Assembly: GCF_054482595.1 (NCBI RefSeq) | Contig: NZ_CM137008.1 | Length of the DNA stretch: 64,000 bases | Reading direction: 5' to 3' (one strand) | Shown: in pieces, positions 59,301-62,300 of the stretch | Layout: the number at the start of each line of letters is the position of its first letter | Position numbering within the stretch: the stretch's first letter is position 1 | Made by a program: the position numbers

Positions 59301-62300
59301 GTACTGCGCGATGCCACCCGTGCCGGTGCTGAAGTTATGCGGGATGCAGTTGTTGAACGTGCGCCGGAGCGAACCGGGAAACTGAAGAAAAATGTGGTTG
59401 TTCTCACTCAGCGTTCAAAGCGTCGGGGGGAAATTATCTCGGGTGTCCACATTCGTGGACGGAACCTGCGAACCGGAAACAGTGATAACAGCATGAAAGC
59501 CAGTGATCCCCGAAATGCGTTTTACTGGCGCTTTGTGGAGCTGGGAACGATAAACATGCCCGCGCATCCGTTCATTCGCCCGGCTTTCGATACGACAGAG
59601 GAACTGGCAGCACAGATTGCCATACAGCGAATGAATCAGGCTATTGATGAGGTCTTAAGTAAATGAGAGAGACCACACTGTATTCCCTGCTGTCTCAACT
59701 GGCCGGAGGACAGGTTTATCCTTATGTGGTCCCGCTGACGGAGGGAAAGCCTGCGGTATCTCCGCCATGGCTGGTATTTTCTGTGGTGTCTGACACTGCG
59801 TCTGATGTGCTTGATGGTCAGGCTGAATCCAGAATTACCGTGCAGATCGATGTCTGGGCAACAGTACCTGATGACGCAGATGATATCCGTGAGCAGGCGC
59901 TTGATGCGGTAAGGCAACTTGCACCCTCCGTTATTTCTAAAACTCAGGGTTATGATCCTGATTCCCGTCTGAGCAGAGCCACGCTTGAATTTCAGGTAAT
60001 AGCCTGAGGTCGTTAATGATTTTACCCACCCGCCGCTGGCGGGTTTTTTATTTTCAGGAGACGAGTATGTCCTCTAATTTTGAGCGTTCGCAACTGACGA
60101 AAATTATGATTTCGTCTGCACCGGTAACAGCAGAAACCCTGGATTCTGCCAGCTATCTTGGCCTGAGCTGTACAATCAAAGAGGTGCAGTTTACCGCAGG
60201 ACAAAAGCAGGATATTGATGTCACCACGCTGTGTTCTGTTGAGCAGGAAAATATTAACGGCCTTGGTGCCGCGTCAGAGATTTCCATGTCAGGCAACTTT
60301 TACCTCAATGCTGCCCAGAACGCGTTGCGCAGTGCCTATGACAATGACACCACGTATGGCTTTAAAGTTATTTTTCCGTCAGGCAACGGATTTACCTTTA
60401 TGGCAGAGGTGCGTCAGCATACCTGGTCTGCAGGAACTAATGGTGTTGTGGCTGCAACGTTTTCCCTGCGCCTGAAAGGTAAACCTGTGCTGACGACAGA
60501 GCCGCTGAAAGTGAAGGTCGATTTAAACAGCACGCTGCAGGTTTCTGCCGGAGCGAAACTCGAAATGGTGGTTGAGGCTGCCGGTGGTGTGCCGCCTTAT
60601 TCTTATGTCTGGAAGAAAGGTAGTTCTCCTGTTTCCGGACAGACGGCGGCAACATTCAGTAAGGCATCAGCAGCATCAGGTGATGCCGGTGCGTATACCT
60701 GCGAGATTTCTGATTCAGCAAGCCCTGTTAACAAGGTGACCTCCACTTCCTGCACTGTTACCGTCAGTTAATGAGGATAGATGTGATGACTAAAAATATC
60801 CGCAATCTGGCACTGGCAACGATGTCGGGGTTTCGCCATAAAACTGTTGATGTGCCTGAATGGGAAGGGGCAACGGTTGTATTACGGGAACCTTCTGCAG
60901 AAGCCTGGTTGCGCTGGCAGGAGATCGTTAAAGCAAAAGATGATGAGACACCGTTATCCGTTGCGGAGCGCGCCCGCCGAAATCTGGAGGCAGATGTTGA
61001 ACTGTTCATTGATGTTCTGTGTGATACCGGACTGCAACCTGTATTTTCAGAGGATGATCGTGAACAGGTGATTGCCGTGTATGGCCCGGTGCATGCGCGG
61101 CTTCTTCGGCAGTCTCTGGAACTGATCAGTGATGCCGGCGAGGTTAAAAAAAAGTAGCGCTTCCGGGGATGCGTTTTCTGATGATGCTGGCGCTCAGGAT
61201 GGGGCGCACATTGTCAGAGTTACGCCGGGAAATGTCCGCATCAGAAATCATGATGTGGGCAGAATTTGACAGGTTCAGCCCGCTGGGTGACGAGCGGGCT
61301 GATATCCGGGCTGCCCAGATAGTTTCTGCGGTTTACGGTGCGCAGGGTGTCAAAGTCCCACTGAATGATGCGCTTCTTCAGTGGGAACAAGAGCAGACAG
61401 AAGGCGTCTCAGATCCATTTGCCGGACTGGAAAACGCGCTTTTAATAGTGTCTCAGTGAGTCAACATAACCGCTTCGGCGGTTTTTTTCGTCCGGAGAAT
61501 GAGTGTGGCGACATTACGTGAACTGATTATTAAAATCTCGGCAAATTCCCGGTCATTCCAGTCAGAGATCTCCCGGGCTTCGCGTATGGGGCAGGATTAC
61601 TACCGTACCATGCAGAACGGAGGCCGGCAGTCCGCTGCTGCATCCCGTGAAATGCGGCGTGCACTGGCAGAAGTGACGGATCAGATAAATACAGCTAAAT
61701 CTTCGGCACTGAATATGGCGGGGGCATTTGCCGGAGCTTTTGCTACCGGTCATCTTATTTCTCTCGCCGATGAGTGGAATTCAGTAAATGCCCGTCTGAA
61801 GCAGGCTTCACAGTCCAGTGATGATTTTCAGGTATCACAACGTGAATTAATGGCAATCAGCCAGAGAACGGGAACGGCGTTTTCTGATAACGCCAGCCTT
61901 TTTGCCCGCTCTGCAGCTTCCATGCGGGAGTATGGCTACAGTTCTGAGGAGGTACTGAAAGTCACCGAGGCGATCTCCACGGGCCTGAAATTATCCGGTG
62001 CCAGTACAGCAGAAGCCAGTTCGGTGATCACGCAGTTCAGTCAGGCACTGGCGCAGGGAGTGCTGCGCGGTGAAGAATTTAACTCTGTGAATGAGAACGG
62101 CGATCGTGTTATTCGTGCGCTGGCTGCGGGAATGGGTGTTGCCCGTAAGGATCTGAAGGCCATGGCGGATAACGGAAAACTGACCGCCGATAAGGTTGTT
62201 CCTGCACTGATTAGTCAGCTTGGGGCGTTGCGTGATGAATATGCAGCAATGCCTGATACTGTTTCATCCTCTGCAACCAAAGTTGAAAACGCCTTTATGG

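Follow-up and report, generated by a model that had tools for sequence, protein, structure and literature searches.

The window, the whole stretch of 64,000 nucleotides that was analysed, ends within the tail module of what is an HK97-like E. coli prophage. The tail-module features lie on the + strand, and the gene order is major tail protein (60067..60771), G (60786..61157), T (to 61459) and tape measure protein (from 61505). The first gene encodes a major tail (tube) protein with a C-terminal Ig-like domain (phrog_158, major tail protein, E 1e-109). Its mechanical ORF begins at 60016; the PGAP-equivalent start, 60067, is preceded at 5 nt by a Shine-Dalgarno sequence, and in identical E. coli records the gene is annotated at the same position. 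In Pfam, Ig_2 scored above its cut-off (28.2 against 27 bits), whereas Ig_3 (27.8 against 30), Phage_TTP_11 and Phage_tail_2 stayed below theirs. The tape measure gene (61505..64000) has a GTG start at 61505, identical to the PGAP start and located 6 nt downstream of the Shine-Dalgarno sequence GGAG, and it continues past the window end. Its product was assigned to PF06120 Phage_HK97_TLTM (E 3e-94), PF20155 TMP_3 (E 2e-57) and phrog_339. An intrinsic-terminator-like hairpin, AACCGCTTCGGCGGTT, followed by a T run, is found at 61468..61489 between T and the tape measure gene. A terminator is annotated at the matching place, just upstream of the tape measure gene, in the HK97 and HK446 records, where it is preceded by the moron gene gp15.

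Gene G encodes a tail assembly chaperone of 123 aa (13.9 kDa) and ends with a UAG stop at 61155..61157. The zero-frame ORF is listed from 60771, and the PGAP-type start at 60786 has the Shine-Dalgarno sequence GAGGA 7 nt upstream. The protein matches the PF06222 Phage_TAC_1 model over its entire length (1-124 of 124; E 2.4e-58, 195.9 bits, cut-off 25), as does phrog_344 match it among the phage profiles, and it is similar to a solved structure, PDB 2OB9 ('Tail assembly chaperone', E 5e-49). HK97 gp13, to which G is 64% identical, scores 203 bits against the same Pfam family. No match of G to the lambda G family, PF06894 Phage_TAC_2, was obtained in Pfam at E <= 0.01, and the similarity to lambda G in BLASTP was not significant (E 4.9).

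The zero-frame 3' end of G reads ...GAG GTT AAA AAA AAG TAG. The initial annotation had placed a canonical slippery heptamer in the last codons of G, and it was located there: A_AAA_AAG occupies 61148..61154 in the X_XXY_YYZ register, within a run of eight A residues (A8, 61146..61153), and the zero-frame UAG (61155..61157) follows directly. Frame analysis revealed that it is the sole in-frame slippery heptamer of G. A TAA in the -1 frame (61145..61147) forms the 5' bound of a productive -1 shift. From 61148 the -1 frame is open for 104 codons up to the TGA at 61457..61459, in agreement with the earlier estimate of about 100 codons; stops interrupting this frame, which would speak against the claim, were looked for by frame analysis and the frame is open over its 104 codons. 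The frames of G and T overlap by just 10 nt, which leaves one possible position for an in-frame heptamer, and A_AAA_AAG occupies that position. The range first assigned to the feature, 61143..61459, extends from the GTT codon preceding the heptamer to the T stop.

After the slip, the T segment (61154..61459) is read in the -1 frame and comprises 101 codons and the TGA at 61457..61459. When 60786..61154 is joined to 61154..61459, the predicted GT fusion has 224 aa (25.2 kDa) and the junction ...EVKKK-VALPGMRFLM..., the -1 frame reading GUA GCG CUU .... T was assigned to PF06223 Phage_tail_T (E 3.8e-19, 69.3 bits, cut-off 25.9), a family that also takes in lambda T (54.1 bits) and the T part of HK97 (73.4 bits). 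With the T part of HK97 gp14 it shares 63% identity. BLASTP of T against lambda T was not significant, and the kinship is visible only via Pfam and the alignment. A profile of 224 positions, phrog_14766, spans G and T as one protein. The tail chaperone identity proposed at the outset is borne out in both halves, with G in PF06222 and a PF06223 T domain encoded in the -1 frame. It is almost certainly the 224-aa GT fusion that matters biologically.

The bare 7-mer is not rare in the window, with 25 copies against 18 +/- 4 expected; as this is not significant alone, the argument has to be built on position, register and homology. The in-frame frequency per codon in the window is about 1.5e-4 for AAAAAAG and about 5e-3 for any X_XXY_YYZ heptamer. 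An open -1 frame follows 22 of the 129 long ORFs in the window, where it is mostly merely the next gene. For this reason, an open -1 frame past the stop is uninformative as a statistic and was rejected. The T stretch, when shuffled, was open in 0.9% of trials. The improbable part of the arrangement is the placement of the heptamer, since the 10-nt overlap admits a single in-frame position.

Conservation was assessed at 11 distinct loci of relatives from E. coli, Stx phages, Klebsiella, Cronobacter, Proteus, Bordetella and Burkholderia, with G identity down to 29%. In all 11, T lies in the -1 frame and is open back to the shift codon. Each of them carries A_AAA_AAG or a variant containing A_AAG at the homologous position, and in each a lysine AAG preceded by A is found 8-11 codons before a conserved F-L-M motif. 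The position of A_AAG does not depend on where the G frame terminates; the two frames overlap by 10 to 268 nt in these relatives. Variant shift sites include GGGAAAG, GGAAAAG and AGCAAAG, with the in-register A_AAG always kept. The A-run has only 6-7 A in the homologues from Stx, Proteus, Bordetella and Burkholderia phages. Among 79 relatives from IMG/VR, T is in the -1 frame in 78; an in-frame A-run heptamer is present in 42 (40 AAAAAAG, 2 AAAAAAA) and the HK97-type GGGAAAAG at the shift site in 36.

The locus had been likened to lambda G/GT. The likeness holds for the logic, the gene position and the T family, but the closest model is HK97 gp13/gp14, and the G family differs from that of lambda. 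HK97 shares both Pfam families, PF06222 and PF06223 (identity 64% and 63%, respectively), and the protein lengths agree, the GT product having 224 aa in both. In HK97, too, the pair is flanked by the major tail and tape measure genes and T is read in the -1 frame. In the HK97 record gp14 is described as "translated due to a -1 frameshift", and the HK446 record gives a joined CDS. The shift sequence of HK97 and HK446 is CGG GAA AAG (GGGAAAAG) and not the canonical A_AAA_AAG. In HK97, moreover, the G frame runs 4 codons beyond the site, giving an overlap of 52 nt compared to 10 nt here, and the extra moron gene gp15 is inserted between T and the tape measure gene. Lambda G/GT resembles the present pair in the -1 shift near the 3' end of G, in having a lysine AAG in the A site and T in the -1 frame, and in the location of the pair between V and H. 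Lambda T belongs to PF06223 as well and aligns over the F-x-L-x-L-A-R-x-M-G-R motif. It is, however, longer (144 aa ORF), the shift site is G_GGA_AAG, and lambda G is a member of PF06894 without BLAST similarity to this G. Judged by sequence, the pair appears to work like lambda G/GT, yet its G half is outside the lambda G sequence family.

A homologous cassette (G 68%, T 65% identical) from the Stx-prophage / O157 'Phage_TAC' frameshift cluster was tested by Antonov et al. 2013 and shifted at 7% in E. coli (PMC3711429). There too the heptamer is followed directly by UAG (AGA AAA AAG TAG). The cassette differs in having A6 and not A8, other 5' codons and another 3' context past the UAG, and because of these different flanks the 7% efficiency is not simply transferable to this locus. 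By efficiency, A_AAA_AAG ranks in the top three -1 motifs of E. coli (PMC4066793). The same heptamer, read by the same single tRNA-Lys, is used at E. coli dnaX tau/gamma (PMC5009743). At dnaX, an upstream Shine-Dalgarno-like stimulator and a stem-loop just downstream accompany a shift of about 50% (PMC3711429), whereas neither is evident here. The -1 frame of dnaX truncates the protein, while the -1 frame here extends G.

Candidate stimulators were evaluated on both sides of the shift site. A local RNA structure is predicted 3' of the site at 61157..61235 (MFE -32.9 kcal/mol, z = -2.9). With RNAalifold on 9 relatives, solely a 6-bp apical hairpin was kept (61190..61195 pairing with 61202..61207). 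This hairpin is located 36 nt beyond the heptamer, is without compensatory changes and overlaps with the codons for the conserved LALRxGR residues. When the window's own structure was placed on the alignment, 62% of the cells were paired compared to 59% in shuffles, with 46-61% for the outer helices. The structure was rejected as a frameshift stimulator on account of the lack of compensatory changes and pairing near the shuffle level. A Shine-Dalgarno-like element upstream, GAGG at 61140..61143, was also rejected, as it is too close to the heptamer (4 nt) and not conserved. The Rfam scan of 60700..61600 at E <= 1 gave one chance match only, Xoo8, with 13 bits against a gathering score of 90. 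No conserved stimulatory element was found by the fold z-score, RNAalifold on 9 relatives or the upstream Shine-Dalgarno-like check, and the arrangement of a dnaX-type stimulated cassette, with a Shine-Dalgarno-like sequence some 6-17 nt before the heptamer and a stable stem-loop a few nt after it, is not present.

The locus very probably undergoes programmed -1 ribosomal frameshifting of the lambda G/GT type, in the HK97 gp13/gp14 form, within the prophage tail module. What is observed directly is the anatomy of the sequence, the family of each half, the order of the genes and the fact that frame relation and shift codon are conserved. Alternatively, T could be translated independently from the ATG at 61169 (or 61181/61184), through weak initiation or termination-reinitiation, the heptamer being incidental. 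Public records do list T as a CDS of its own (96 aa, 'phage tail assembly protein T'), and an ATG lies 12 nt past the stop codon of G. The Burkholderia and Bordetella relatives have TGATG, in which the stop codon of G and the conserved ATG overlap in a manner typical of coupling, and some coupled initiation of free T may occur in the family. However, the Shine-Dalgarno spacing of the ATGs at 61169, 61181 and 61184 is 0, 11 and 14 nt, compared to 5-7 nt in the neighbouring genes. The ATG at 61169 lacks conservation (Stx phages, for example, have ATT there), and lambda is without Met at the aligned position. Residues upstream of the first conserved Met of T are conserved, namely P4, F8 and L9 (alignment A2), and in all relatives the T frame is open back to a shift codon that is itself conserved. 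Indirectly, the sequence suggests that T is without usable translation initiation signals of its own. The homologous Stx cassette frameshifts, at the level given above (7%), and the lambda T domain acts as part of GT (PMC5009743). Independent translation of T as the explanation of the arrangement is very improbable.

The fusion could also arise mainly by transcriptional slippage, with RNA polymerase adding one A in the A8 run at 61146..61153. The GT protein made after a one-A insertion would be exactly identical; both the ribosomal slip and the insertion give ...EVKKKVALPG..., so that mass spectrometry is unable to separate them. Tracts of An with n > 7, which would take in the A8 run here, are listed among programmed transcriptional realignment tracts (PMC3711429), bacterial slippage has been documented on runs of 9 A or T (PMC5009743), and A9 is found in 2 of the 79 IMG/VR relatives. 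Against this, A8 is one base short of the 9-nt runs with documented slippage (PMC5009743), homologues carry A6-A7 or interrupted runs and still have the in-register A_AAG, and the Stx cassette gives 7% even with A6. An A/T run of about 9 nt or more whose length is conserved among homologues, the pattern expected for transcriptional slippage, is not seen here. As the main route to the fusion it is very improbable, and a minor contribution from the A8 run could exist. It is barely conceivable that there is no functional recoding at all, the tail module decaying and the G/T junction being a relic or a homopolymer indel. Defective prophages are numerous in E. coli, and in one IMG/VR relative the run is A7 rather than A8 and T falls in the +1 frame, which implies that the run is indel-prone or error-prone. 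Both ORFs are nevertheless intact here, and the late operon is complete and intact from terminase through tape measure. Of 5426 complete E. coli genomes, 900 contain the module; its sequence is 100% identical in many of them and reaches 95% identity or more in 866. Phages recorded from E. coli isolates carry it too (phi467, Evi, PhiR49_2 and the vB_Eco series).

Frameshifting of the G/GT type is textbook knowledge. It was reportedly studied in lambda by Levin, Hendrix and Casjens in 1993 and by Xu, Hendrix and Duda in 2004, 2013 and 2014, and the work of Xu et al. in 2004 is said to deal with a G/GT-type programmed -1 frameshift class of tail assembly chaperones of long-tailed phages. The HK97-like family at hand is already predicted to frameshift, and biologically there is nothing new here. 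Production of the fusion in this prophage, its efficiency and the chaperone mechanism we infer as follows. Most ribosomes would translate G (60786..61157) and halt at the UAG, which yields the 123-aa chaperone. A small fraction, probably a few percent, would slip back by one base at A_AAA_AAG (61148..61154) while the single E. coli tRNA-Lys(mnm5s2UUU) species occupies AAA in the P site and AAG in the A site. By an alternative route with the same outcome, peptidyl-tRNA-Lys on AAG may slip with the slowly decoded UAG in the A site. The slipped ribosomes would continue in the -1 frame to 61459 and produce the 224-aa fusion.

In lambda, G and GT are needed for tail assembly, G binding the tape measure protein and T the major tail protein (PMC5009743, a review of the G/GT mechanism). 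On the lambda pattern, many G and few GT molecules would coat the tape measure protein, and the T domain would recruit the major tail protein and start tube polymerisation, with neither G nor GT remaining in the virion. According to the same review, G and GT are absent from mature virions (PMC5009743); mass spectrometry of virions would therefore fail, and lysates of induced cells are needed.

The prophage late operon also contains a tRNA-Lys(UUU)-like gene (50096..50172) with an argN-type scaffold and the anticodon loop CCUUUAA, in which the anticodon UUU is accompanied by C33. Position 33 of tRNA is near-universally U33. The G:GT ratio may depend on more than the heptamer: transcriptional slippage in the A8 run (A9 in some relatives) could contribute, and this tRNA could alter slippage at A_AAA_AAG. 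Such a dependence is very unlikely. If true, the phage would supply a lysine-codon-reading tRNA (50096..50172) that tunes its own recoding at A_AAA_AAG. A correlation between tRNA and heptamer found no support, Stx phages with the same heptamer carrying Arg tRNAs instead.

The practical value of the analysis lies in annotation. Although the module is very common, RefSeq/PGAP and the phage records split G and T and begin T at a non-conserved ATG, and in the records examined for this exact sequence the two are always annotated as separate CDSs.

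The G/T region was read directly and translated in all three forward frames. G ends with GAG GTT AAA AAA AAG TAG, its zero-frame stop lying at 61155..61157. The initial annotation had placed a canonical A_AAA_AAG −1 frameshift, giving a G-T tail chaperone fusion as in lambda, at 61143-61459, with the slippery heptamer in the last codons of G and the −1 frame open for about 100 codons. Both features were found: A_AAA_AAG occupies 61148..61154 in the X_XXY_YYZ register, directly before the UAG, and is the sole in-register slippery heptamer within the G ORF; the −1 frame, after a TAA at 61145..61147, runs for 104 codons without a stop from 61148 to the TGA at 61457..61459. 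As the two frames are jointly open for just 10 nt (61148..61157), only one in-frame heptamer position is possible, and A_AAA_AAG occupies it. Plain counts of heptamers or of open −1 frames say little: the window has 25 copies of AAAAAAG (18 ± 4 expected), and a long open −1 frame follows 22 of the 129 long ORFs, in most cases being just the next gene. What is improbable is the placement of A_AAA_AAG. Per codon, AAAAAAG is found in frame at a rate of about 1.5e-4, and canonical heptamers of any kind at about 5e-3. When the T stretch was shuffled, the frame remained open in 0.9% of trials.

The G product, 123 aa from the ATG at 60786, matches PF06222 (Phage_TAC_1) over the full model (E 2.4e-58); for the −1 frame product the match is PF06223 (Phage_tail_T; E 3.8e-19). 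In PHROGs, the 224-position phrog_14766 matches G at positions 1-121 and T at positions 123-220; a single profile thus spans both halves, indicating that phage records already contain annotated fusions of this type. 2OB9 ('Tail assembly chaperone'), the sole solved structure retrieved by sequence, covers the G half (E 5e-49), and we take it to be HK97 gp13. Downstream of T is an HK97-type tape measure gene (PF06120, E 3e-94). Upstream of G, the major tail protein gene (60067-60771), labelled only 'hypothetical protein' in RefSeq, carries a C-terminal Ig-like domain (Pfam Ig_2 and Ig_3; PHROG 'Hoc-like head decoration' families). Strong intrinsic-terminator-like hairpins are present in the late operon at 60028-60054, just ahead of the major tail gene start, and at 61468-61489, between T and the tape measure gene (AACCGCTTCGGCGGTT followed by a T run). 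The HK97 and HK446 records likewise annotate terminators upstream of the major tail and tape measure genes. Both hairpins are presumably passed by Q-modified polymerase.

A tblastn search with the predicted GT fusion (60786..61154 joined to 61154..61459) returned 226 phage records, nearly all as two pieces in different frames. Ten diverged records, together with HK97 and lambda, were compared. T was in the −1 frame relative to G at every locus, down to 29% G identity (Burkholderia phiE125), the overlap of the two frames ranging from 10 to 268 nt. A_AAA_AAG is present in this prophage, Stx prophages, Proteus Pm34, Bordetella PHB09 and Burkholderia phiE125 and phi1026b; mEp506 has G_GGA_AAG, as in lambda. 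HK97 (L015), HK446 (L005) and Cronobacter ENT39118 have G_GAA_AAG (codons CGG GAA AAG), and Klebsiella P7641 has A_GCA_AAG (codons GCA AAG); these last two types (loci L005, L015, L007 and L006) are non-canonical, falling outside X_XXY_YYZ. An AAG lysine codon preceded by A was found 8-11 codons ahead of the conserved F-L-M-x-L-A-L-R-x-G-R motif. Judged from these alignments, the putative shift site is fixed in position relative to the T domain, and its sole element conserved family-wide is the A_AAG lysine codon. In a scan of IMG/VR, T was in −1 at 78 of 79 usable loci. The exceptional locus has A7 rather than A8, which would place T in the +1 frame, and represents either a mutation (homopolymer indel) or a sequencing error.

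The closest documented case is HK97, with 64% identity between gp13 and G and 63% between the gp14 T part and T; its record describes gp14, a joined CDS, as 'translated due to a -1 frameshift', and the HK446 record does likewise. Lambda G falls in another Pfam family (PF06894), while PF06223 is common to lambda T and the T of the window; pairwise BLAST of the window proteins against lambda gave no significant similarity. A 41-member, HK97-like 'phage tail assembly chaperone' frameshift cluster was found by Antonov et al. 2013 (PMC3711429), and 6-7% frameshifting was measured in E. coli for two of its members. One cassette sequence in that study is the Stx-prophage locus L004, which shares 68%/65% identity with G/T and carries an identical heptamer with UAG directly after it. 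In the ranking of Sharma et al. 2014 (PMC4066793), A_AAA_AAG is one of the three −1 motifs with the highest efficiency in E. coli. In lambda, the ratio of G to GT is about 30:1; binding to the tape measure protein is through the G parts and to the major tail protein through the T domain, and neither G nor GT is in the virion (review, Atkins et al., PMC5009743). From the frames, both Pfam families, synteny, the relatives and the tested homologue, the location and the G-T frameshift interpretation in the initial annotation were judged correct. The site is an unremarkable example of a recoding event that is already known, with experimental support, and its family is known too.

In the proposed mechanism, the majority of ribosomes would end at the UAG to give G (123 aa, 13.9 kDa), and a few percent would shift −1 on A_AAA_AAG to give GT (224 aa, 25.2 kDa) with the predicted junction ...AGEVKKK-VALPGMRFLM.... 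The shift could be a tandem slip of both tRNA-Lys or, as we infer, a slip of the P-site tRNA-Lys from AAG to AAA while the neighbouring UAG awaits release factor. A stop directly follows the heptamer in four lineages (this prophage, Stx, Proteus and Klebsiella) and not in the others. No convincing stimulator was found in the local fold, the relatives, the upstream element or Rfam, which gave no family match at the site. The window's own sequence downstream of the heptamer folds well (z = −2.9); as a stimulator this structure was rejected, the relatives keeping only a 6-bp hairpin, 36 nt downstream and over conserved codons, with no compensatory changes. An upstream GAGG was likewise rejected, being too close to the heptamer and non-conserved.

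Public annotation implies that T is translated independently, which is unlikely as the main route. None of the three candidate ATGs has a workable Shine-Dalgarno sequence, a GGGG stretch lying 0, 11 and 14 nt before them, whereas GGAG/GAGG is found 5-7 nt ahead of the starts of the major tail, G, tape measure and capsid genes. In the T-part alignment, P4, F8 and L9, which are encoded past the shift site and ahead of the first conserved Met, show little or no variation; the ATG at 61169 is not conserved, and lambda has Leu where the conserved Met aligns. The G stop overlaps the conserved ATG in the relatives from Burkholderia and Bordetella, and some translational coupling to T may occur, especially there.

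Transcriptional slippage at the A8 run would yield the same GT protein, so that mass spectrometry cannot separate it from the ribosomal route. It is argued against by the length of the run, one base below the 9-nt runs with documented slippage (PMC5009743), by homologous sites that work with A6, and by conservation of the in-register A_AAG and not of run length (8 in this prophage, 6-7 in the remaining A_AAA_AAG lineages). Run length differs even among near-identical IMG/VR relatives (L019 and L045; site equivalent to 61146-61154). Two IMG/VR loci have A9, giving A_AAA_AAA then TAG, a length at which slippage becomes plausible. That the module is decaying and non-functional is argued against by the intact late operon and by near-identical copies in phage records.

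The window is E. coli chromosome (yeeO/amn region) with a lambdoid prophage bearing an HK97-like late operon. Of 5426 complete E. coli genomes, 900 contain the 730-bp G/T stretch, many of them at 100% identity, and it is found at 97-99% identity in 11 phage records, including phi467, Evi, PhiR49_2 and the vB_Eco series. Among the inspected records of the exact sequence none carries a joined GT CDS; G and T are given as separate CDSs, and T begins at the counterpart of ATG 61169 or at another start codon close by. The only practical consequence is that public annotation of this common prophage module misses the joined product.

The early region of the prophage (41000-46600) carries dicB, ydfC, a YdaT-family toxin and hokD (annotated record L016), typical of Qin/Rac-like lambdoid prophages; their combination with an HK97-type head and tail module reflects mosaicism. 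Around yeeO/amn, the chromosomal part (15648-36197) contains a tRNA-Ser(CGA) gene and four tRNA-Asn(GTT) genes, of which three are on the minus strand and one is on the plus strand. Interspersed with them are island-like genes: a TonB-dependent receptor, an additional argH and C4-dicarboxylate transporters. The prophage starts a few kb past the tRNA-Ser gene, exonuclease/dicB lying at about 39-40 kb. Four prophage tRNA genes (50019-50328) closely follow the Q antiterminator gene: CAT (Met/Ile2), Lys(TTT), Thr(TGT) and Gly(TCC). The tRNA-Lys(UUU)-like gene (50096..50172) has the lowest Rfam tRNA score (44 bits vs 65-74 for the other three), and its anticodon loop, CCUUUAA, has C33, a position at which U is near-universal. 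The gene shares about 85% identity with Stx-phage argN (tRNA-Arg, loop CUUCGAA), the differences including anticodon-loop positions 33, 35 and 36, and therefore has the appearance of an Arg-tRNA scaffold whose anticodon has been switched. The codon family that this predicted tRNA would read is that of the A_AAA_AAG shift site.
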